NCBI GenBank assembly: GCA_028286645.1
Contig: JAQBRF010000002.1
Location: forward strand, 122,518-186,517
DNA length: 64,000 nt
Source of the DNA: Candidatus Nomurabacteria bacterium
GTDB lineage: Bacteria; Patescibacteriota; Minisyncoccia; Phycocordibacterales; UBA5272
Direction of reading: 5' to 3'
Under the pieces are notes generated by a model. It was not told where the DNA came from and searched no databases. It worked only from the letters and a program-made list of their open reading frames with translations. Position numbers and translations under genes: made by a program. Below, piece after piece: positions 3,194 to 52,964 of the stretch. Position 1 is the stretch's first letter. Each line of letters starts with the position of its first letter.

Positions 3194-4006
3194 TTAATCA
3201 ACAACCTGGGCTTGTTTTTCTAGTAACTTCTTAGAAATATCCAGCCAATTTCCTAATTTTAAGTCCTCCGCCCTTACTTTCTCAGGCAGATTTAATTCTT
3301 TAAATAAAATTGGAAAGTCAAAATCTTTAAAAGATTCACGCAAATTTGATACCAAAATCTTTCTTTTATGAGAAAAGCCAGCTTTTACAACTTCAAAAAA
3401 AAGATTTTCATGTTTTTTGCTAATAAAGCTTTTTCTTTGAATGCTGTCTAACTTAAGAACAGCACTATCTACGTTAGGAATCGGATTAAAGCTGCCTCGC
3501 TTTACTCTGTACGGTATTGAAGGATCCCCATAAGCTTTTACAGAAAGCGACAAGATGCTTTCTTTCCCGTCTCTTGCTACCGCTCGTTCTGCTACTTCTT
3601 TCTGCAATAAAAGCACCATGACAGATGGTTGGAAAGAGCCTGAAAGAAACTTTCGAATGATTGCACCGGTTATGTTGTAAGGAATATTGGCGATGAGTTT
3701 GTAAGTAGAAGGAAGTACTTTATGGTCAGCCGGATCAAATTCTAGGATGTCTTCGTTAACTAACACTAATTGCTCCTTTTCAATTTCTGATTTAAATTTC
3801 TGATTTAAAACTTCAACAAGGTCCTGGTCTTTTTCAATTGCGACTACTTTTGCTCCGGTTTTAAGTATTTCCTCAGTCAAAAAGCCTTTTCCGGGCCCGA
3901 TTTCTAAAATCGTATCAGATTTCTCCACGCCCCCTGCTTTCACAATTTCTATGCGCGCAGGAACAGACGTAAGGAAATTTTGCCCAAGAGACTTTTTCGG
4001 TTTCAT
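3194..4006 (-). CDS. ksgA: 16S rRNA (adenine1518/1519-N6)-dimethyltransferase KsgA/RsmA
   Basis: Hallmark N-terminal LGQNFL motif and SAM-binding EIGPGKGFLT. Length of 270 aa is typical for the family. Confidence 0.9.
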   Translation of the reverse strand: MKPKKSLGQNFLTSVPARIEIVKAGGVEKSDTILEIGPGKGFLTEEILKTGAKVVAIEKDQDLVEVLNQKFKSEIEKEQLVLVNEDILEFDPADHKVLPSTYKLIANIPYNITGAIIRKFLSGSFQPSVMVLLLQKEVAERAVARDGKESILSLSVKAYGDPSIPYRVKRGSFNPIPNVDSAVLKLDSIQRKSFISKKHENLFFEVVKAGFSHKRKILVSNLRESFKDFDFPILFKELNLPEKVRAEDLKLGNWLDISKKLLEKQAQVVD

Positions 4007-15601: not shown

Positions 15602-16543
15602 ATGGACTCCCTTTTATCCCTAAAACAAGATTTTCTACAATATATTGAAATAGAAAAAGGAAGAAGTGCTCTAACTGTGCGAAATTATGATCATTACTTG
15701 AATCGCTTCCTGGAGTTTAGTAAAACAGACTCCCCTACTGAGATCACCGATCAGATGATGCGAGGTTATAGGGTGTATTTAAATCGTCTAGAAGCCAGAA
15801 AGCCGAAAAAAGGCCAAGCTGTAGAAACTTTAGATAAAAAGACTCAAAATTATCACTTGATAGCTCTTAGAGCTTTTTTCAAATATATGCGTAAACGTGG
15901 CGTGAAGTCGTATGATCCTGAACAGATAGAGCTTGCTAAAACTGGCGAGCGGGAATTAGATCTGATAAGCGACAAAGAATTAAATGAGCTTCTTAATGCG
16001 CCTGACCTTTCAAATATTTCTGGTCTTCGAGATAAAGCCATCTTAGAATTATTTTTCTCAACAGGCTTGCGTGTTTCTGAATTGTGTTCTCTTGATCGGG
16101 ACATGGATTTAACTAACGGAGAGATTTCTGTCCGAGGAAAGGGGGGGAAAATCCGCGTGGTATTTATTTCTGGAAGCGCTCGGGACGCGGTAAAGAAATA
16201 TATATCTTCTCGCGTTGATATTGATGAGGCTTTATTTATCGATCATTCCCCTCGCGCTCATTCTCGTATGGTGAAGGAAGAGTCGGTACGTCTCACTCCC
16301 CGATCTGTGGAAAGAGTAGTGAACAAGTACGCCGCTATTGCGGGGATTGCCAAGAAATGTACTCCCCACATAATTCGCCACAGCTTCGCGACAGATTTGC
16401 TGTATAACGGAGCAGACCTTCGTACGGTACAAATGATGCTTGGGCATGCCTCTATCGCCACTACGCAGATTTATACTAATGTGACGAACAAATTCCTCCG
16501 TGATCAGTATGAAAAGTTTCATTCGAAGCGTGGGAAGAAATAG
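15602..16543 (+). CDS. Site-specific tyrosine recombinase, XerC/XerD family
   Basis: N-terminal SAM-like domain. Catalytic region ...HIIRHSFATDLLYNGADLRTVQMMLGHASIATTQIYTNV includes the active-site Tyr. Confidence 0.85.
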   Translation: MDSLLSLKQDFLQYIEIEKGRSALTVRNYDHYLNRFLEFSKTDSPTEITDQMMRGYRVYLNRLEARKPKKGQAVETLDKKTQNYHLIALRAFFKYMRKRGVKSYDPEQIELAKTGERELDLISDKELNELLNAPDLSNISGLRDKAILELFFSTGLRVSELCSLDRDMDLTNGEISVRGKGGKIRVVFISGSARDAVKKYISSRVDIDEALFIDHSPRAHSRMVKEESVRLTPRSVERVVNKYAAIAGIAKKCTPHIIRHSFATDLLYNGADLRTVQMMLGHASIATTQIYTNVTNKFLRDQYEKFHSKRGKK

Positions 16544-16627
16544 TTTGAACTTCTGTAAAAGAGGAGTAATATTTACTGTGGACTTATAAATTACAAAGAA
16601 GCGTACGGAATCTATTACGGAGGCTCC

Positions 16628-16819
16628 ATGAACGTTACCGAAAGCGATAAGAATCAAGGTGGAGAAATAGAAACAGAATTGGCAATAGACTCGACACCGA
16701 GCGATGTTCCGCAATCCATTATCACTGTACCAAGTGCGGTGTATAAGCAGTGGGTTATTCAGTTTCCGCGATCTCCCATTCCTTCTGGCGGACCTCTCAA
16801 GCCCGGCGAAGATTTCTAG
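16628..16819 (+). CDS. Small hypothetical protein (63 aa) in the GC-rich segment
   Basis: GGAGG Shine-Dalgarno 5 bp upstream. Own rho-independent terminator directly downstream. GC content higher than the genome background. Confidence 0.4.
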   Translation: MNVTESDKNQGGEIETELAIDSTPSDVPQSIITVPSAVYKQWVIQFPRSPIPSGGPLKPGEDF

Positions 16820-16828
16820 AAGGAAAAA

Positions 16829-16855
16829 AGCGAGCGCTACCGCGCTCGCTTTTTA
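16829..16855 (+). terminator. Rho-independent terminator
   Basis: agcgagcgc tacc gcgctcgct followed by TTTTT. Confidence 0.65.
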
Positions 16856-16927
16856 CTTGTGTGTTTTCTTTAAAAGAGTACGCTTATAAATGAGCAGTAC
16901 ATGATCAATAGCTTACAAGGAGCGCCC

Positions 16928-17107
16928 ATGGCAGCTCATCAAGATTCACCAGATGGAAAGGTACACGTGGGCTACAAGGAAGTCCCTGTGTTCGATATCA
17001 AGAATGGCGTGAGTACTCCAGCTAAAAAACCGGAGGAAAAACCTGCGCCTGCGGCGCCGCAGGATATAACGCTCGTGACGCAGAAGCCTCCCGTCCTTAG
17101 GTTGTGA
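16928..17107 (+). CDS. Small hypothetical protein (about 59 aa; the start is probably the second Met of the tracked ORF)
   Basis: AGGAG Shine-Dalgarno 6 bp before the ATG at 16928. P/K/A-rich. Own terminator downstream. Confidence 0.35.
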   Translation: MAAHQDSPDGKVHVGYKEVPVFDIKNGVSTPAKKPEEKPAPAAPQDITLVTQKPPVLRL

Positions 17108-17124
17108 AAGTTTGAGGCTAAGTT

Positions 17125-17149
17125 AAGGCGGCTAACCCCGCCTTTTTTA
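17125..17149 (+). terminator. Rho-independent terminator
   Basis: aaggcgg ctaacc ccgcctt followed by TTTTTT. Confidence 0.6.
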
Positions 17150-17223
17150 TTTGTGTTTATTTCAATATGATGTAGGCTTTGGGATAAAGCATCATCCTGA
17201 AAACCCAAATGAAGGAGGGGGCA

Positions 17224-17432
17224 TGGCGATCATCGATACTAAGGACTCGCTTGAACCGTGGGACTTTCTTGGGCCGGATGTATCCGGGCCCGGCAGTCTG
17301 AAGGATGCAATACGGACGGACGAAGAAGGGGGTCGTGGGGTGGAGAGGGTTTCATTTCATGGGCAGTCTCCGCTCCATCCTGTGGATTCCGAAGACACCC
17401 TTCGCCCGCGCGATATTTTCGCAGGCGAATGA
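17224..17432 (+). CDS. Small hypothetical protein (about 69 aa) in the GC-rich segment
   Basis: AGGAGGG Shine-Dalgarno before the ATG at 17224 (internal Met of tracked ORF 17151..17432). Weak hairpin plus T-run downstream at about 17440-17470. Confidence 0.3.
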
Positions 17433-17465
17433 CGCGAGTAAGGCTGGGCCTAGTGCCCGGTCTTT

Positions 17466-26599: not shown

Positions 26600-27179
26600 G
26601 AAGATGTTTGGTGAGGGCTCGGAGTTTTTTAAGTGCGCGTTCTTTGATCTTTCGTACAGAAGCCTCTTCTTTATCCAGTACTTCAGAAATTTCTTTGTAA
26701 CCAAGTTCTGAATAGAAATAAAGCCGAATCACTTCCTGCTCATCGTGAGTGAGCGATGGGAGATACTCGTTTATGGTTTCTGCTAAAAGATGTATGTGCG
26801 TGGTTTCTATAATGTCTACAGAATCATCGCTTGTTGTTTCAAAGATCGATTCATCTACTTCCACACTTCCTTGCTTAGTTCCCTCATTTATAAGCAAGTG
26901 TTTAGCTATTGTGAAAAGATACGCGAGCGGCGACTTGTTTGGCTGGTATCCGCCCAAGGCCTCATAGAACTTTAAGAATGTTTGCTGGCAGATATCCTCT
27001 GCAAGCTCCACGTTCTTGCTCCGTGAAATAACGTATCTGTACAAGGGGGTGTATAACTCCGTGTATACCTTTCCGAAGGCTTCTTTGTCACCTTCTTTGG
27101 CGAGCAAGATAAGCTTTTTTATTTCTTCGGTGTCCCCTACACCATATATAACAGGCTTATTATTGTTTTGTGACAGCAT
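26592..27179 (-). CDS. RNA polymerase sigma-70 family (ECF-type) sigma factor
   Basis: Region 2 LYRYVISRSKNVELAEDICQQTFLKFY. Region 4 EQEVIRLYFYSELGYKEISEVLDKEEASVRKIKERALKKLR. Confidence 0.8.
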   Translation of the reverse strand: MLSQNNNKPVIYGVGDTEEIKKLILLAKEGDKEAFGKVYTELYTPLYRYVISRSKNVELAEDICQQTFLKFYEALGGYQPNKSPLAYLFTIAKHLLINEGTKQGSVEVDESIFETTSDDSVDIIETTHIHLLAETINEYLPSLTHDEQEVIRLYFYSELGYKEISEVLDKEEASVRKIKERALKKLRALTKHLHG

Positions 27180-28299
27180 CGATACCAGGTAGTGTACCAG
27201 AAGCCAGGTAGGCGAGCATGGCCCCGCCCCCTAAAGAAACAAAGGTAAACTTCTTAAGCAGGTGAAGTGAATGAGCCACGTCTACCGTATCCCCTCCACC
27301 CAAATAAGTCTTTGCTTGGCTCTCCGTAACTTGTACTAAAACTTGCTCAGTTCCATGAAGCCACCCTTTTTCATATAGACCTAAAGGTCCATTAAAGATA
27401 ATTGTTTTTGAATTTTTAATAAAGTTTACAAGCATCTTTACTGTTTCTTCTCCACAATCTACCACTACAGCATCTGCTGGTATTTTATTATAAGGCGCTG
27501 TTTCTCTTGTTTCTAATACGACATCAGCGGGTGTTAAAAGAAGCGGATGATTAATTATAGATTCTGGAACGGTATAGTTTTTATCATAAAAGCTTTTGCC
27601 TATTGAAAGCCCTCGAGCAAGCCACACATTATGCGCCATAGCTCCGCCGATAAACACATGAATACCCTGATCTAAATAATGTTTGATGAGCGGAAGCTTG
27701 GTGGAAATTTTCGCTCCACCTATTATTAATATTGCGGGCTTTACAGGCTTAAGAGCGTCAGTTAAATGCTCTAGCTCTCTTTTAAAAGTGGGACCGAAGT
27801 ACGAAAGAGAATTTCTGGCGACCCCAACCACGCTTGCGTGTTCTCTGTGTGAAACAGAAAAGGCATCATTAATGAAAACGTCTCCTAACGATGAAAATGC
27901 AGTAGCAAGTGAGGGAATATTATCTTCCTCACCGGGGAACATCCGTACATTTTCTAGTAGCACTGCGTCTCCAAGAGGTAATGTGTCGACTTCCCCTCTT
28001 ATTTCTTCAAAATTCAATGATGGCAAAAATTTAATGAACGGAAGTGCTCGGCATGCGTGATCGGCAACAGGCTTTAAACTCTCGCCTTTTCCTCCGAAAT
28101 GAGTTAGTAAAATTATTTTTGCCCCAGCAAAGGATAGTTCTTTTAAGAATGGGACGCTTACATCAAACCGACTAGTGTCTTCTATCTTCCCGTCTATGAC
28201 TGGCATATTCCAATCTACTCTAACTATTACCCTTTTGTCTTTAAAAGTTGTAAGAGGCGGGAGAAAATGTACATTTAGATTTTCTGATAATGTCTCCAT
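27160..28299 (-). CDS. pgk: Phosphoglycerate kinase
   Basis: RVDWNMPV is an RVDFNVP variant. The C-terminal GGGA(M)LAYL...LPGIDA region is the PGK signature. Confidence 0.9.
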   Translation of the reverse strand: METLSENLNVHFLPPLTTFKDKRVIVRVDWNMPVIDGKIEDTSRFDVSVPFLKELSFAGAKIILLTHFGGKGESLKPVADHACRALPFIKFLPSLNFEEIRGEVDTLPLGDAVLLENVRMFPGEEDNIPSLATAFSSLGDVFINDAFSVSHREHASVVGVARNSLSYFGPTFKRELEHLTDALKPVKPAILIIGGAKISTKLPLIKHYLDQGIHVFIGGAMAHNVWLARGLSIGKSFYDKNYTVPESIINHPLLLTPADVVLETRETAPYNKIPADAVVVDCGEETVKMLVNFIKNSKTIIFNGPLGLYEKGWLHGTEQVLVQVTESQAKTYLGGGDTVDVAHSLHLLKKFTFVSLGGGAMLAYLASGTLPGIDAVTKQ

Positions 28300-28301
28300 A
28301 G

Positions 28302-29108
28302 CTATTTACTGTAGCAATTTTTAATCACTTCAAAAAAAGATGTTGCGTCTTGGGATGCCTGTCCAATTAAAAGTCCATCCACTCCGCCTTCATCTAAAAA
28401 TATCTTGGCATCATCTTTATGTACTCCTCCTCCATATAAAATATTCACTTTCTTTGCATAGTCCATTCCCACTAATGACACTAAAGATCGCCTTATGGAG
28501 ATAACTACCTCGAAACATTCCTGTGGAGTAGCAGGAACTGACTGACCTATTGCCCAGACTGGTTCATACGCTATGATTAAATAATCAAAGAGATTCTTCG
28601 GCGCGAGAGTCAGAGACTCTTTTAAATCTTCCTCTAAGAAACTTAAGTATTTGCCTTCTTTGTCTCTCTTACTTTCACCTATGCAGAGCACTGTTGTAAA
28701 TTTGGATTGAAGAGAAAGTGCTACCTTATGCATTCTTTCTTCCTCACTTTCTCCTCTTTTCCTAACTTCGCTATGCCCAACTAATGTAAAGTCTGCTCCG
28801 CCCGTTAAAAGCTGAGATGGAATAGTTGCTCCAGTGGTTTGACCTAAAGATATTCCTCCTATATTCTGCGACCCTATAAATCCGGAGGAGATTTCTTTTA
28901 TATGTGGAATAAAGATTTCTGGGACAGCCAGATAATATGGCTTCTTTGGCAGCTTAGGATGGGCAGACAAAACTTTCTTTTCTAAAAGCTTTACGATTTT
29001 AATCGCATTTTGTAATGTGTCCGGAGTTGATTTCCAGTTCCCGATTAATATTGGCAAGGTGCGTTTATTCATTACAAAATTATACCAGAAGAACCAAACA
29101 TTAGACAT
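28302..29108 (-). CDS. tpiA: Triosephosphate isomerase
   Basis: IGNWKS, catalytic CIGESKRD and AYEPVWAIG, and YGGGV. The start may be the internal Met MNKRT. Confidence 0.9.
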   Translation of the reverse strand: MSNVWFFWYNFVMNKRTLPILIGNWKSTPDTLQNAIKIVKLLEKKVLSAHPKLPKKPYYLAVPEIFIPHIKEISSGFIGSQNIGGISLGQTTGATIPSQLLTGGADFTLVGHSEVRKRGESEEERMHKVALSLQSKFTTVLCIGESKRDKEGKYLSFLEEDLKESLTLAPKNLFDYLIIAYEPVWAIGQSVPATPQECFEVVISIRRSLVSLVGMDYAKKVNILYGGGVHKDDAKIFLDEGGVDGLLIGQASQDATSFFEVIKNCYSK

Positions 29109-29251
29109 TAGATTATAGATGTTAGATTATACTTTCTTCAAAAGAAAATGACACTGTTTGCGCTTATAAGCGAGTGATCCCTATTTGATATTGATGTGCT
29201 TGGGATATAGCGAAATAAAAACAGGCGACGCTTGCGCGCCGCCTGGCTGAC

Positions 29252-29833
29252 TTAGAGGTTTTCGAAATCCGAAGGCCGTAAGGGCGGGATTCTCCAGGGG
29301 GAAGGCCACCTCAATTCTTTGTAGACGAAGCCATAGAAAGCCCTTCCTTCGTCTTGCGCCAGAAATTGGCACATGAATAAGTCGGCGAGATCGGAATGAA
29401 GCTGGGATAGGGGCTCGCACCCCAGTATTCCGCTCAACATCCTGTACTCGCCATACCGCCCGATTTGGTTTTCGATGGCCCAAGTGGCTACCGCTACTTC
29501 GGCATTACCAGGGTGGTGGTCTTCTCCGAGATAGGTTTGACCAAGAATGCTTTCGTAAAGCTCCCGCCCTCGCTCGCTTACCCCCCAGAGGACAAGCGTA
29601 GTGAGCACGCTCCCACTGTATGAGGTGAGTCCATCGGGAACATTAGAGAGCGTCGCGATGAGCGGGCAAGTGGCCTCTCCCATGCCTACGGACTTCATCG
29701 CGTATACGGCCCAAGCTTTTAGACATTTCACTTGTGCGATGTTTTCCTGATCCACGGGATGGAGTGGTATGGTCCACTCGTCCGTCACTTCGACATCTTG
29801 CGCTCTTGGGTAATCCGCTTCGAAAGCCGCCAT
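29252..29833 (-). CDS. Hypothetical protein (193 aa) in a GC-rich, probably horizontally acquired island
   Basis: ORF track. GC content clearly above background. No recognised domain. Downstream partner of the 2H phosphoesterase gene. Confidence 0.5.
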   Translation of the reverse strand: MAAFEADYPRAQDVEVTDEWTIPLHPVDQENIAQVKCLKAWAVYAMKSVGMGEATCPLIATLSNVPDGLTSYSGSVLTTLVLWGVSERGRELYESILGQTYLGEDHHPGNAEVAVATWAIENQIGRYGEYRMLSGILGCEPLSQLHSDLADLFMCQFLAQDEGRAFYGFVYKELRWPSPWRIPPLRPSDFENL

Positions 29834-29970
29834 GGCGTTTTCCTTAATAATGTTCAGTTATCTGGCTCAAAGGCCAGGATTAAATTACTCTACCACAGCA
29901 GAAAAAATAAATCCCTATACGAAGTTTTGACACTTAGTGTAGGGATAAAGCACGGTCTCCATTTGCTGAT

Positions 29971-30570
29971 TTAAACACGGGGAATGATTGGTCGCCACGA
30001 GTTTCCACGCCTCTCGCATATTGTAGAACATGCCAGTTGGAAAGTAACAGGCGGACTTGTGGGTGCACTTTCCACAACTCTCCTCAGCGCATCCCTCCCC
30101 GCCTGCGTGAGCTCCTCCTTTTTGATGATATCAGCTGTCACGTGGGGTTTTACTTTGGTGGGGATATCTTTTTTCCAGCTGAATCCATCCAGTGTGGTAA
30201 CCCTCTGCCGCTGCTCTGTGACCCACTCCTGAAACGCTATTTCCAGTCCTCTTTTGGTTCTCACCTCAAAGTACGTGGCAACTTCATCATCAAACTCCAT
30301 TAGTGTAGGCTGACGGATGGAGAATGTGAGATACCGAATGATGTTATCGCGTTCGTACTGAAGTTTCAGGTAAAGCCGGTTAAGTGCAACCGCTGCTTCG
30401 TGGGAGCAGTAATATGGCGGAATGATTGTGATATGCAGGTCTTCTTGCCGGATGATGACCGCGTCCCTTCCCGTTACCATTCTCGCGGCTATGGAATATT
30501 TTTGTACGCGAGCAAGTACGGTAGGAGAAAGGATTCTCACCCCTAAGTAAAACAGTCCAATCTCAGACAT
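29971..30570 (-). CDS. 2H phosphoesterase superfamily protein (LigT / 2'-5' RNA ligase / cyclic phosphodiesterase-like)
   Basis: Two H-x-T/S-x motifs in a GC-rich gene: HITIIPP and KPHVTADII. Confidence 0.5.
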   Translation of the reverse strand: MSEIGLFYLGVRILSPTVLARVQKYSIAARMVTGRDAVIIRQEDLHITIIPPYYCSHEAAVALNRLYLKLQYERDNIIRYLTFSIRQPTLMEFDDEVATYFEVRTKRGLEIAFQEWVTEQRQRVTTLDGFSWKKDIPTKVKPHVTADIIKKEELTQAGRDALRRVVESAPTSPPVTFQLACSTICERRGNSWRPIIPRV

Positions 30571-30782
30571 GGTTTCCCCCTTTAATCTAAGTTTAGCTTT
30601 ATCCTATCAAATACCCCCAAACTTAACACTTGCAAAAAATGGAAACTATTATATAATAAAGAAGTTACTGGATGTGTACTGTTTAACCGGCCCCGAAATG
30701 GCCGGTCGAATTTTTATAAAATTAGGATTTATTAATTGAATTAGCTTATGGCTATAAAGCTATCGGCTAACAACTATTCACT

Positions 30783-32183
30783 ATGTTAGATATTAAAGCT
30801 CTAAAAGTTGCCTTAGAACAACTTGAACAAGAAAAGAAAATAAGCCACGAAAAAGTGGTAGATGCAGTAGAAAAGTCTCTTGCTGCGGCATATCAGAAAG
30901 AATATGGAAAGCGCGGACAGATTGTTCGTTGCCGTATTAACTTTGATACAGGAGAAACTACTTTTGAACAAATAAAAGTTGTTGTCGATGAGACTACTGT
31001 TCGTATGCCTGTAGAAGGAGAAGAAGAGGTTTATGAACCAATTCCGAAAGAAGGCGAAGAAGACGGACTTCTTCCTCGTTACAATGAAGAGCGTCATATT
31101 TTATTAAATACAGCGAAGCTTTTAAAGAAAAATGCTGAGCTTGGCGAAGAAATTGTCTTCCCTCTTGATGACCAAGACGACTTCGGAAGAATTGCCGCAC
31201 AAACAGCAAAGCAGGTTATCGTTCAGAAACTTCGCGAAGCAGAACGTGAATCAATCGTTGGAGAATTTAGCGATAAAGAAGGAACCATTGTTTCTGGTAT
31301 CGTTCAAAGAATCGAACGTGGCACAGCATTCATCGACCTTGGACGCACAACAGCGATCCTTCCTTTCGAAGAGCAGATCGCGTCAGAAAGACTGCGCCCC
31401 GGAGAAAGAATCCGCACTTACCTCTTCTCAATAGAAGAAGGGTTCCGCGGACTTTCTATTCGCCTGTCACGCACACATCCAAAATTCCTTATTGAATTAT
31501 TTAAAAATGAATCAGCCGAAATCGCTCAAGGTGTAGTAGAAATCGTTGCTGTTGCTCGTGAACCAGGTTCCAGATCAAAGATCGCTGTGAAATCAAATGA
31601 TGAAAGAATAGATCCAATCGGAGCATGTGTAGGTCAGCGCGGTTCCCGCGTATCGGCCATCACTGATGAACTTTCTGGTGAAAAGATTGACGTGATCGAA
31701 TGGTCAGGAGATGCAAGACGATTTATAGCAACTGCCCTTTCTCCGGCTAAGGCAATATCAATAGAATTAAATGAAGAGGATAAGAAAGCGATTGTAACGG
31801 TAGATAAAGGAGAACAATCTCTTGCTATAGGTAAAGGAGGACAAAACGTTCGTCTTGCTGCGAAATTAACTGGATGGAAAATTGATATTATTTCTGGAGG
31901 AGAAACAATCGCGGAAGCCGATCAGCAAGGAGCATTTACAGAAGCGCAAAGAAGTGAGCAGCTAACTGAGGAAGCTGAACAGATGCTAACTGATATTAGT
32001 CAGTCGGGTACTGAGCCAACTCCTATACTAGATGAATCCGTTGCTGGAGTATTAGATACAACGTCCGAGCCACAGAAAATTGCTGATAAAATAAACAGTG
32101 ATGACGGAGATGAAACGATGAATACGGAAAAAGCTCAGGACGTAAAAGAAATTTCAGTTACTCCAGAAGAAGCAGAGAAATAA
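30783..32183 (+). CDS. nusA: Transcription termination/antitermination factor NusA
   Basis: NusA N-terminal domain (KKISHEKVVDAVEKSLAAAYQK). S1 region. KH domains (GACVGQRGSRVSAITDELSGEKIDV... and AIGKGGQNVRLAAKLTGWKIDI). Confidence 0.9.
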   Translation: MLDIKALKVALEQLEQEKKISHEKVVDAVEKSLAAAYQKEYGKRGQIVRCRINFDTGETTFEQIKVVVDETTVRMPVEGEEEVYEPIPKEGEEDGLLPRYNEERHILLNTAKLLKKNAELGEEIVFPLDDQDDFGRIAAQTAKQVIVQKLREAERESIVGEFSDKEGTIVSGIVQRIERGTAFIDLGRTTAILPFEEQIASERLRPGERIRTYLFSIEEGFRGLSIRLSRTHPKFLIELFKNESAEIAQGVVEIVAVAREPGSRSKIAVKSNDERIDPIGACVGQRGSRVSAITDELSGEKIDVIEWSGDARRFIATALSPAKAISIELNEEDKKAIVTVDKGEQSLAIGKGGQNVRLAAKLTGWKIDIISGGETIAEADQQGAFTEAQRSEQLTEEAEQMLTDISQSGTEPTPILDESVAGVLDTTSEPQKIADKINSDDGDETMNTEKAQDVKEISVTPEEAEK

Positions 32184-34008: not shown

Positions 34009-34797
34009 GTGAAGAAATTCGATCGAGACTACGCAGCGTCGCTGGCTCACACGGTGGGCGAGCTTTCCTGCGAAGAGTTTCAGCATGCAGGAGTTGGAAC
34101 CGTCTGGAAGGAGGATGAAACCCCCTTTACGGTGGGTGACAAGATCGCACATGAGTTCCTGGTGAACTCAGTGCGGCGCGATTTCCCGCGGATGAGCATC
34201 ATCAGCGAAGAGGGGCTCGACACAATCGAGTACCCGGAGTACACCTTCCTCTGCGATCCGATCGACGGGAGCATCCCCTTCAATCAGGGGATCCCGATCT
34301 GGACCAATGTGTTCTCGGTCCTTCGCGAGGGTGAGCCGATCCTCGCGGCGATCAACGATCCGGTGATGAAAAGGCTTTTCATCGCCGAGAAAGGCAAGGG
34401 CGCCACATTGAACGGCCAACCGATTCGGGTTTCCCAGAAGTCGGAGCTGAAAAACGCCGAGATCGTCGGTGTCTGGTGGAGGGGCTCTAAGTTTCGCCTC
34501 CATAACATCTTCGGCGAGCTGATGGAGCGCGGTGCGGGCTGGGCGAACCCCTGCTCAATCGCGCACCCGGCGGCAAACGTCGCGCGCGGTGTGATCGAGG
34601 CTACCATCTTTGCGGGCGACAAGCCGTGGGAGACGGCAGCGATCAAGCTCATCGTCGAAGAAGCTGGCGGACGAGTCACCGACATCTACGGTGACGAGTT
34701 CAAACGTCTCGATGGCCCGATCAAAGGCCACATCGCAAGCAATGGGCTCATTCACGAGGAACTCGTCAAGATCTCGCAGTCTTTCAACTGTGCCTGA
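34009..34797 (+). CDS. Inositol monophosphatase (IMPase/SuhB/CysQ) family protein, GC-rich, horizontally acquired
   Basis: Metal-binding motifs ISEEG and DPIDGS, plus the WxDP-like region. About 58% GC against a background of about 38%. GTG start. Own terminator downstream. Confidence 0.85.
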   Translation: MKKFDRDYAASLAHTVGELSCEEFQHAGVGTVWKEDETPFTVGDKIAHEFLVNSVRRDFPRMSIISEEGLDTIEYPEYTFLCDPIDGSIPFNQGIPIWTNVFSVLREGEPILAAINDPVMKRLFIAEKGKGATLNGQPIRVSQKSELKNAEIVGVWWRGSKFRLHNIFGELMERGAGWANPCSIAHPAANVARGVIEATIFAGDKPWETAAIKLIVEEAGGRVTDIYGDEFKRLDGPIKGHIASNGLIHEELVKISQSFNCA

Positions 34798-42712: not shown

Positions 42713-42776
42713 ACATCCCCTACAATATGTGTACGAAGCTGTTGCTCGCACACATATTGTAGGGGATTTCTTTTTG
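42713..42776 (+). terminator. Strong hairpin (17-bp stem) plus T-run; plus-strand terminator with no annotated upstream CDS
   Basis: tcccctacaatatgtgt acgaagctgttgctcgc acacatattgtagggga followed by TTTCTTTTT. Confidence 0.5.
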
Positions 42777-42832
42777 CTCAAGCTTGTCCTTTAGAAATAA
42801 ATCAGGGCGGCTCGCATAGCGAGCCGCCCTTT

Positions 42833-43036
42833 TCACTTCTTGTAAAATGAATCTACCGCGGCATCCGTTCTCGGCTTTATGACCGCCACAACAAACATCA
42901 CTCCGAGAATCAGAACGCCCACGACGGTGATCCAGACTGCGATCCACCGCGCTTGGTTTCCAGCAGGGATGACATAGAACCCCAAGATACCGAGAGCGAA
43001 CAGCGTGGCACCCGTAATCCCAAACCCTTTTGCCAT
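42833..43036 (-). CDS. Small two-TM membrane protein (67 aa), GC-rich
   Basis: ORF track. Two hydrophobic helices. GC-rich hairpin terminator downstream at 42797-42822. Confidence 0.4.
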   Translation of the reverse strand: MAKGFGITGATLFALGILGFYVIPAGNQARWIAVWITVVGVLILGVMFVVAVIKPRTDAAVDSFYKK

Positions 43037-43265
43037 GATGGTTCCTTATTCGGATGAAGTCCGACTTAATGGCAGTATAACACGATATATCGAAATAGTC
43101 AATGCTCACATCTTAATAAAATCATGATATAGTGCGCATATACAGATAAGAAAGTATTGCTATCACGAAAGGAATTCAGAATTACCTCTTATAATTATCG
43201 AAATTTTAATAGTTTCGTATCTGGTGGATATACGCTACCCGCTACAAACTACCCGCTATTTATTT

Positions 43266-45943: not shown

Positions 45944-46507
45944 TCAGCACTTATTTACCGGCATCGTGATCACTTTCGGGACTTGACTGTTTCTCGGTGA
46001 GGGTGAGATGAAAAATTCTTCTTCACCCTTACTCCCCCTGATCGAAATCCCCTTAATAGATTTGAACTTCCCGTCTTGGTAGTCCTGAAGGATTACCTGA
46101 CGGTTGAGGCTTGGAGTGAAGCGCAAGTATTTCTTTTTACGCTTGAGGAACTTGGCGATCATGCCTTTTTCCGTGAACCCTTCAGCGATTTCAACTTCTG
46201 CTTTCACTTTTCGGAAGCCGACCTCCCCTGCTGCAAATACGACCGATTTTTTATCGCCGAACTCCTCTCTTCGCACTCGGACGAAGTCGAATATCTTCCC
46301 AACGATTTCGTCACGGACTTTTTTCTTTGCGGCGAGTTTTTCGTCGCGCTCTTTCTGTAAGTCCGTAATTTTCTGCTTGTAAGAGTTTTCTATGCGCATG
46401 TGTGCAAAGATATTACTTGCAAGTTGTTTTAGGAGTCCGGCCACCTCCCAGAGGGCTTTCGGCGGACGAACGCGTTTCACAACTGTACCTACAACTTGGG
46501 TATCCAT
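45944..46507 (-). CDS. Phage Mu Gam-like (host-nuclease inhibitor / DNA-end binding) family protein, GC-rich
   Basis: N-terminal coiled coil. Central ...DKKSVVFAAGEVGFRK... resembles the conserved Gam-family block KKS(I/V)xLPxGT(V/I)xWR. Recognised from memory only. Confidence 0.4.
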   Translation of the reverse strand: MDTQVVGTVVKRVRPPKALWEVAGLLKQLASNIFAHMRIENSYKQKITDLQKERDEKLAAKKKVRDEIVGKIFDFVRVRREEFGDKKSVVFAAGEVGFRKVKAEVEIAEGFTEKGMIAKFLKRKKKYLRFTPSLNRQVILQDYQDGKFKSIKGISIRGSKGEEEFFISPSPRNSQVPKVITMPVNKC

Positions 46508-52394: not shown

Positions 52395-52964
52395 TTGAAA
52401 AGGAAAACGACTATGAAAATGACCTTGACTATCCTAGAAGGCCTCTTCGTATTGGGCTTAATTATGTTATGGGTTGCGTATGAATGGGTGCACCACCTTA
52501 TTGAAAAGAAATTCAAAAGCCCCATACGTTCGGCTGTCCGCAGAGCTGCAGTGTCAATCCAACCCACGACATGTATCTCAGAAGCCAAGGCGGTGATTCG
52601 CGACGTCGCACAATTCGAGCATCTCCTCTGGGTTTTTGGTGCAGGAAACGAGAAATGGGACGTGGCGCATAAGCTTTTATTCAACCGGACAAGAGCTCTG
52701 AAGTATCTTGCACAAGTTCATGAGCAAGAGTTGACGGCGCGTCTGATACTTGCCCAATCCGCACGTTTGGAAATCTCTGCCGAGGAAGTGGAAATTGATC
52801 CACTTGAAAAAGTAATCCGCTTCCTGGAAGAAGCAAACACACTTCCGATGAGCTTAACCGAGCATGTTTATGAATGGCGGAAGACCAAGGCGGAACTCGA
52901 TAAACTGAAAGGGACGGACCCTATGTTTCACCCTTGGCGATATCTTACCGCCTCCACCATCTGA
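52395..52964 (+). CDS. Hypothetical protein (189 aa), N-terminal TM helix, moderately GC-rich
   Basis: ORF track. Own terminator at 52990-53016. No recognisable domain. Confidence 0.5.
   Translation: MKRKTTMKMTLTILEGLFVLGLIMLWVAYEWVHHLIEKKFKSPIRSAVRRAAVSIQPTTCISEAKAVIRDVAQFEHLLWVFGAGNEKWDVAHKLLFNRTRALKYLAQVHEQELTARLILAQSARLEISAEEVEIDPLEKVIRFLEEANTLPMSLTEHVYEWRKTKAELDKLKGTDPMFHPWRYLTASTI

Follow-up and report, generated by a model that had tools for sequence, protein, structure and literature searches.

Between tpiA and nusA, in a genome of Candidatus Nomurabacteria bacterium (contig JAQBRF010000002.1), lies a GC-rich segment at 29180-30580 of the 64,000-nucleotide stretch of DNA analysed here, which is called the window and from whose first letter positions are counted. 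The segment carries two co-directional minus-strand open reading frames (ORFs), ORF199 and ORF193. On the minus strand, nusA lies upstream of ORF199 and is divergent from it, and tpiA and then pgk lie downstream of ORF193. An earlier note on this DNA had placed two co-directional genes between these flanks, as found here, and had read them as a horizontally acquired island that could be a small RNA-repair or RNA-end-modification module. The explanation preferred here, held at somewhat better than even, is a resident variable slot with independent genes, whose local alleles became GC-rich by replacement within the lineage. The elements of the locus are as follows.

27160-28299: pgk
28302-29108, minus strand: tpiA
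29067-30780, no strand assigned: variable slot between the 5′ ends of tpiA and nusA, a stretch in which blastn against 8 related loci finds no shared DNA
29252-29833, minus strand: ORF193 (JWN37_189), founder of an unannotated family, an all-alpha protein that is acidic (isoelectric point, pI, 4.6) and rich in Trp
29971-30570, minus strand: ORF199 (JWN37_190), a divergent LigT-like 2H phosphoesterase of 199 aa, pI 9.3
30783-32183, plus strand: nusA

Composition and coding content of the segment

The compositional break is real. At 50.5% GC, against 39.0% for the rest of the 64 kb and 39.2% for the whole window, the segment tops 1252 sliding windows of 1401 bp (mean 39.3%, standard deviation 3.0). 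The figure of about 55% in the earlier note is wrong for the segment, and 54.5% is found only in ORF193; ORF199 stands at 49.2%. Codon usage confirms the anomaly: GC at third codon positions (GC3) is 60.3% in ORF193 and 51.5% in ORF199 versus a median of 33.7% over the 58 ORFs of the window, giving robust z-scores of 5.6 and 3.7, respectively. The three spacers in the segment are AT-rich and host-like (33-41% GC).

ORF199 and ORF193 are taken as genes because both have a ribosome-binding-site (RBS)-like sequence (AAAGGGGGAAACC ahead of the ATG of ORF199, AAGGAAAACGCC ahead of that of ORF193), a strong intrinsic terminator follows ORF193, no RNA family lies beneath them, and each has full-length homologues equal to it in length. 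Chance ORFs are unlikely: at the GC of the segment a frame would stay open by chance over 193-199 codons with p ~1e-4 (our estimate from base composition). No Rfam family matched across the segment at gathering or E-value thresholds, and no tRNA or transfer-messenger RNA was found under it; with protein homologues for both ORFs, this rules out an RNA gene as the cause of the GC-rich stretch.

Homology by blastn to the eight related loci spans nusA to 30734-30782 and picks up again in tpiA at 29042-29066. Since the DNA homology of relatives ends at the nusA start and returns inside tpiA, the stretch from about 29.07 to 30.78 kb is regarded as variable.

ORF199, a divergent 2H phosphoesterase

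Even with E values up to 1 admitted, ORF199 by itself has no match in Pfam, NCBIfam, PHROGs, PADLOC or PDB sequences, and a word-indexed homologue search of 5.8 billion proteins returned ORF199 alone. An exhaustive HMMER search, in which ORF199 and ORF193 were joined end to end as the query and each match was assigned by the query range it covered, yielded about 17 distant ORF199 relatives of ~200 aa (E 6e-17 to 4e-4, 21-31% identity). A fused profile of the two families in the word-indexed search returned only P0041, a method that clearly under-reports; P0041 is a further ORF199-family member with a precomputed PF02834 match and the JGI name 2′-5′ RNA ligase. Among 18 aligned family sequences, PF13563 (2_5_RNA_ligase2) is matched by 8, weakly (best E 3.9e-6), PF02834 (LigT_PEase) by 5 and PF10469 (AKAP7_NLS) by 3. 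The alignment has its own signature, HxT[LIV][LIV]PPF, GFxWR..IP....PHITV and YPTLYAKY..GW, into which the two catalytic motifs fall.

30424-30435, minus strand: first 2H catalytic motif, H46-I-T48-I and then P-P-Y, on modelled strand 45-56; family consensus HxT[LIV][LIV]PPF
30133-30144, minus strand: second 2H catalytic motif, H143-V-T145-A, on modelled strand 143-150; family consensus PHITV

The AlphaFold (AF2) model of ORF199, built from 20 sequences, is confident (predicted local distance difference test, pLDDT, 92.1; predicted template-modelling score, pTM, 0.83). Foldseek against the PDB places 2H proteins at 22 of the 25 top matches, with E 7e-5 to 3e-2, probability 0.92-1.0 and template-modelling (TM) scores of 0.44-0.61. 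The top match is the penguinpox cyclic GMP-AMP (cGAMP) phosphodiesterase (PDE), and others are human and yeast Usb1, Arabidopsis cyclic phosphodiesterase (CPDase), AKAP18, ASCC1, Thermus thermophilus LigT and trypanosome ms64. Both HxT motifs are intact in ORF199 and are kept in most, not all, members of its family; both catalytic histidines are gone from the syntenic homologues P0010 and P0037. ORF199 is thus recognisable as a 2H phosphoesterase through the Pfam matches of its relatives, its modelled fold and its two HxT motifs, and it is a member of a new, lineage-restricted subfamily of this well-known superfamily. The LigT-like assignment that the earlier note had drawn from the motifs HITII and HVTAD was correct, by way of relatives and fold rather than of any direct profile match. 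A literature search found no paper linking 2H phosphoesterases to Patescibacteria.

Like the LigT/ThpR-type enzymes (Escherichia coli ThpR, T. thermophilus 1iuh), ORF199 is a single-domain protein of ~200 aa with a predicted 2H fold, in which two beta strands carry the HxT motifs at a distance of about 97 residues; the second motif aligns to PHITLLR of E. coli ThpR. Unlike them, ORF199 itself lacks a 2H-model match at E ≤ 1, and its family has a signature of its own, is confined to one Paceibacterota lineage and includes some members without the histidines. The family profile matches E. coli ThpR only marginally (E 0.022, probability 2%).

The best structural matches of ORF199 are to Usb1, the central domain of AKAP7/AKAP18, ASCC1, plant CPDase and the poxvirus cGAMP PDE; for these eukaryotic and viral proteins the Foldseek probability is 1.00, with E 7e-5 to 1e-2 and TM 0.44-0.61. 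The resemblance to AKAP7 extends to sequence, as three family members match AKAP7_NLS and the family profile weakly matches the AKAP7_NLS-type ms64 (E 0.024). ORF199 differs from this group in its bacterial host and context and in being 9-19% identical to its members. Their substrates include U6 small nuclear RNA tails, ADP-ribose 1″,2″-cyclic phosphate (Appr>p) and cGAMP, none of which is indicated for ORF199.

ORF193, an all-alpha orphan family

The partner protein is as unfamiliar as the earlier note had described it. ORF193 has no match in Pfam, NCBIfam, PHROGs, PADLOC or PDB sequences, its relatives have none in Pfam, NCBIfam or PHROGs, and the family profile has none among PDB sequences; a match to an unrelated metabolic family, which would have spoken against a role beside the 2H enzyme, did not appear. 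The word-indexed search returned ORF193 itself alone. The exhaustive HMMER search found seven relatives of 182-205 aa (E 1e-16 to 2e-4), for a family of about 8 sequences. Eight residues are invariant in all eight (W20, W41, G89, W118, E121, N122, R164 and P183), and each protein contains 6-11 tryptophans. The best-conserved stretch is a short motif.

29468-29482, minus strand: W118-A-I-E121-N122, with W118, E121 and N122 invariant in 8/8 sequences

The AF2 model of ORF193 (pLDDT 84.4, pTM 0.85) is all-alpha with one beta hairpin, and Foldseek found no match for it in the PDB (best E 1.9, TM 0.2) or in BFVD. The macro, Tpt1/KptA and similar families, suggested earlier as relatives, are not matched by ORF193 alone or via its family; the all-alpha model rules out macro, Tpt1/KptA and archease folds. 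ORF193 founds an undescribed tiny family with a candidate new fold. Two apparent relatives were rejected: large WD40-repeat proteins matching residues 36-96 in the exhaustive search are repeat-summed artefacts, and a neighbouring gene in locus L001 gave a negative hhalign result and is nusA.

Signals between ORF199 and ORF193

The spacer between the two genes has a definite order: after the stop of ORF199 come a hairpin with a T-run, a TAGAGT box, a CTGG...CCAG hairpin and the RBS of ORF193. The signals on the minus strand, including the terminator beyond ORF193, are these.

29902-29944, minus strand: terminator-like hairpin (CCCTACAC...GTATAGGG) and T-run directly after ORF199, present in the minimum-free-energy fold; putative function
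29887-29892, minus strand: conserved -10-like box TAGAGT upstream of ORF193; putative promoter
29862-29877, minus strand: 5′-leader hairpin of ORF193, CTGG-N8-CCAG, present in the predicted fold
29212-29245, minus strand: intrinsic terminator after ORF193 (29245-29222 in a narrower delimitation), a 10-bp stem with 8 GC pairs and then TTTTTATTTC

These elements recur upstream of ORF193-type genes elsewhere. The columns T..TAG..T are invariant in 6/6 upstream regions (the window and five other loci), with or without a 2H gene upstream, and the hairpins occur in most of the five other loci aligned. A hairpin with T-run stands at the matching place in L010, L005 and L012; an equivalent of the leader hairpin, CTG(G)...C(C)AG, is found in the same three loci, and its first arm in L004. 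Where a 2H gene precedes an ORF193-type gene in L005 and L010/L011, the spacer measures 115-137 bp. ORF193 would accordingly appear to be a cassette of its own, with promoter, leader, ORF and terminator.

Obligate coupling of ORF199 and ORF193 is unlikely because a terminator and a promoter-like box lie between them and because of the pattern of presence and absence in relatives. A looser functional link is possible, since the order 2H then ORF193-type is fixed in three genomes.

The same slot in related genomes

Contigs encoding homologues, from about 14 related Paceibacterota genomes, were scanned with hidden Markov models built from the two family alignments. A search with the 2H sub-alignment added three loci in GTDB genomes and none in JGI metagenome contigs or IMG/VR; a hand-made degenerate DNA pattern also found nothing. 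A common gene order emerges. The genes tig, ppa and nusA run in one direction; the variable slot follows in the opposite direction; a transporter block of ABC, FtsX and HlyD-like genes is oriented as nusA; and tpiA and pgk are oriented as the slot. The window, L004 and L020 lack the transporter block. Homologues of the 2H gene are divergent from nusA in L001, L010, L013, L016, L017, L018/19, L020 and L021, and ORF193-type genes occupy the nusA-adjacent slot in L004, L010 and L012. The contents of the slot vary as follows.

2H gene then ORF193-type gene: window, L005, L010/L011 (nzgw472)
2H gene without ORF193-type gene: L001, L013/14, L017, L018/19, L020, L021
ORF193-type gene without 2H gene: L004, L012, L002/3, L006
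Content cut by contig end: L016
ORF193-type gene in another context, mreB-P0022-holB: L007-9, with no 2H neighbour in L007

The pair is thus present in three genomes, the 2H gene alone in six and the ORF193-type gene alone in five (one of them in the other context). The two genes do co-occur in other genomes and in a fixed order, but each is found alone more often.

The proteins of the slot are the least conserved of the neighbourhood, as identities to the window proteins show.

NusA: 82-91%
Tig: 68-74%
Pgk: 59-68%
TpiA: 59-66%
Ppa: 52-55%
ORF193-type: 25-32%, to ORF193
2H: 23-33%, to ORF199

Across nine genomes the N-terminal regions of NusA are 78-94% identical and the syntenic 2H proteins 23-52%, with r = 0.22 between them. 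Sequence identities of ~30% place the slot genes in the fast-evolving tail and are by themselves no proof of an arms race; caution is called for because the identities of Ppa and TpiA show that the compared genomes are fairly distant overall.

Other small genes also reside in the slot: a predicted membrane protein of 147 aa that overlaps the 2H start by 4 bp, a Cys-rich protein of 154 aa, a DUF2726/DUF559 nuclease-like gene in L021 and two tiny ORFs. Extra slot genes lie at 3447-3890 of L013, 3484-3945 of L017 and 2293-3067 of L021, and none is related to ORF193. At 3341-3940 and 4001-4648 of L020, a degenerate and truncated second 2H copy (125 aa, keeping PHTTV) stands directly upstream of the full-length P0037, which has lost both catalytic histidines. 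This juxtaposition of a truncated copy and a histidine-less protein shows duplication and decay within the slot.

Origin of the GC-rich alleles

Horizontal acquisition, as proposed in the earlier note, is half borne out. The composition is atypical in GC, GC3 and amino acids, with a GARP/FYMINK ratio of 1.43 for ORF193, the highest of its family, and 1.08 for ORF199, the third highest of its own. On the other side stand homologues in the same slot of relatives and the lack of a donor. A simple foreign insertion of the segment is not supported by the comparison of sequences: both genes have homologues at this very slot in relatives, so the gene content is not new to the site. The trappings of a mobile element are likewise missing. 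No integrase or tRNA flanks the segment, its flanking direct and inverted repeats are short chance-level matches, and neither protein has phage, plasmid or viral relatives (tblastn against phages and plasmids; IMG/VR).

ORF199 and ORF193 are the most divergent members of their respective families. Elevated GC recurs in the slot genes of other genomes, in ORF193-type genes of L004 (47% vs 37%), L010 (45% vs 37%) and L012 (51% vs 44%) and in the 2H gene of L018 (47% vs 39%). The numbers in NCBI isolate names of Nomurabacteria, which we take to be binned percentages of GC under an assumed naming convention, run from ~30 to 47. Most likely, to judge by composition only, the resident alleles gave way to versions that came from a GC-richer member of the lineage; the shifts in GC3 and amino acids would fit such a replacement. 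Gios et al. 2025 (PMC12455944) report that when single genes are transferred in Patescibacteria, donor and recipient are mostly both Patescibacteria.

The favoured explanation starts from what was computed (genes, 2H fold and motifs, synteny, presence and absence, and composition) and extends it conditionally to substrate, separate transcription, allele replacement and a role for ORF193. One Paceibacterota (Parcubacteria/Nomurabacteria) lineage would keep a variable slot between nusA and either the ABC-transporter cluster or tpiA-pgk. Its usual resident would be a fast-diverging, lineage-specific LigT-like 2H subfamily, of which ORF199 represents a member with intact HxT motifs. ORF199 most likely works in the cytoplasm as an active 2H phosphodiesterase, in which H46/T48 and H143/T145 are predicted to hydrolyse a 2′,3′-cyclic phosphate or a 2′-5′/3′-5′ phosphodiester; the putative substrates are small nucleotides, cyclic or linear, or the ends of RNA. 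ORF193 would be a second accessory gene of the slot, probably transcribed independently. Its cluster of invariant Trp, Glu, Asn and Arg residues and its acidic surface suggest, as a best guess held with low confidence, that it would bind a protein or small molecule without being an obligate partner of the 2H enzyme. The GC-rich alleles of both genes would come from a GC-richer member of the same lineage, not de novo from an unrelated donor.

Several points weigh against this explanation. Neither a donor nor a near-identical allele was found, the closest relatives being 31-34% identical, and the spacers of the segment, being AT-rich, have no imported look. A local bias, for instance GC-biased gene conversion at a recombination hot spot, could have raised GC3 with no transfer at all. 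As to independence of the genes, the pair recurs in the same order in the window, L005 and L010, so that a link between them is possible; genomes scored as having a single gene could carry the other elsewhere, since most contigs are short; and the promoter and terminator calls are predictions from sequence. Foldseek scores do not tell RNA-end enzymes from cyclic-nucleotide phosphodiesterases.

Alternative explanations

The best surviving alternative is the one proposed in the earlier note, in which the pair is a horizontally acquired two-gene module for RNA repair or RNA-end modification and the 2H enzyme and ORF193 cooperate on one RNA substrate. The 2H fold of ORF199, the joint compositional anomaly of the two genes and the recurrence of the order in L005 and L010/L011, with its short spacer, all favour it. 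RNA-repair operons with 2H or end-healing enzymes include Pnkp/Hen1, RtcB-RtcA and the Tpt1-CPDase-macro pathway, and here too a 2H gene adjoins a second small gene. Unlike in those operons, ORF193 has neither the partner folds nor a profile match, linkage of the two genes is not strict, and they are separated by transcription signals. ORF193 resembles no known RNA-repair protein in sequence or fold and is acidic. Loci with one gene alone (6 and 5) outnumber paired ones (3), an ORF193-type gene stands without a 2H neighbour in the mreB-P0022-holB context of L007, and two 2H homologues lack the histidines. All paired cases fall in one syntenic slot of one lineage, and the adjacency is therefore explained by shared ancestry. 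As a joint module the pair is unlikely.

A little less credible still is a conflict locus, in which the 2H enzyme degrades nucleotide immune signals or heals toxin-cut RNA and ORF193 is a counter-defence or immunity-type factor, with an arms race behind the turnover of the slot. Phage Acb1, poxvirus cGAMP PDE and viral 2′-5′-oligoadenylate (2′-5′A) phosphodiesterases degrade such signals, and the penguinpox enzyme is the top Foldseek match of ORF199, although its rank over Usb1 is a near tie. The weak conservation of the slot proteins beside NusA (23-52% vs 78-94%, r = 0.22), their presence/absence variation, the tandem degenerate 2H copy in L020, the loss of catalytic histidines in two homologues and the company of other small variable genes, such as the nuclease-like gene of L021, would all suit a conflict. 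On the other hand, neither protein matches PADLOC or PHROGs or has viral or plasmid relatives, and between genomes as distant as these (TpiA 59-66%, Ppa 52-55%) identities of ~30% could be the slow-constraint tail of ordinary divergence. Equally doubtful is the broader notion of the slot as a hot spot of conflict or host interaction, where alleles of the private 2H family and of the ORF193 family, the latter with a new all-alpha fold and an invariant W..EN and R, are swapped between lineages. In this notion the 2H enzyme would have immune or signalling nucleotides, or else RNA damaged by toxins, as its substrates, and ORF193 would act with or against it.

A toxin-immunity or toxin-antitoxin pair, with the 2H protein as toxin, acidic ORF193 as immunity protein and ORF193-only loci as orphan immunity genes, is very improbable. 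The order of an enzyme followed by a small acidic helical protein, the fast divergence of both and the solitary ORF193-type genes of L004 and L012 are in keeping with such a pair. However, 2H genes with intact HxT motifs stand alone in L001, L013, L017 and L021, the two genes are non-overlapping and parted by a terminator and a promoter-like box, and no secretion signal or toxin-delivery domain is present. Least likely of all is an artefact, be it an assembly chimera from a GC-richer co-occurring organism or ORFs that are not genes: the source is a metagenome-assembled genome and both proteins are singletons at 90% identity, but the order nusA, 2H-ORF193-type, tpiA agrees with related genomes on both sides, the spacers are host-like, both ORFs have full-length homologues, confident models, RBSs and terminators, and other GC3-rich single genes lie in the same 64 kb.

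Other features of the window

Just downstream of tig lies the gene whose composition deviates most strongly within the window. It is a gene of the inositol monophosphatase family at 34009-34797 on the plus strand (262 aa; Inositol_P, PF00459, E 3.7e-40), with 58% GC, 75% GC3 and z = 8.7. A DoxX-like gene takes its place beside tig in L016 and L020, and the Inositol_P gene is probably a foreign single-gene insertion. Further GC3-rich small ORFs (z = 3.3-4.3) lie at 45944-46507 and 42720-43109 on the minus strand and 52395-52964 on the plus strand; one is phage Mu Gam-like (PF07352, E 1.9e-14) and two have no Pfam match. Such GC3-rich single genes suggest patchy acquisition as a general feature of this genome.

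The leader of nusA, at 30623-30716 on the plus strand, contains a sigma-70-like promoter, TTGCAA-16-TATAAT, followed by a terminator-like hairpin (ACCGGCCCCGAAATGGCCGGT and a T-run). The hairpin is kept upstream of nusA in 7/8 related genomes, with compensatory stem changes in L020, and is a candidate attenuator for autoregulation by NusA. Tandem CTAATAA or AGCTAA-like repeats stand directly upstream of the nusA start in L013, L017 (in both, for example, ACTAATAACTAATAACTAATAAC), L021, L001 and the window (30740-30782).

At 15602-17450, ~900 bp at 47-48% GC come after a gene for a XerC/D-type recombinase (15602-16543), with no ORF longer than 93 aa and only sub-threshold small-RNA matches in Rfam. 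These ~900 bp may be what is left of a mobile element, or an RNA that annotation has missed.

Implications

The biology is otherwise modest: ORF199 and ORF193 are not demonstrably one system, and the idea of an RNA-repair island is not established. For island hunting the locus carries a caution, as its sharp GC break would mark divergent alleles in a conserved variable slot and not newly inserted genes. For the proteins themselves, a fold-level assignment is gained for ORF199, which every profile library misses, and with it a private 2H subfamily is defined in the ultra-small Patescibacteria. The ORF193 family, with a confident model and no structural or sequence relatives, is a target for structural and functional work, and the main value for follow-up lies there and in the substrate of the 2H subfamily.

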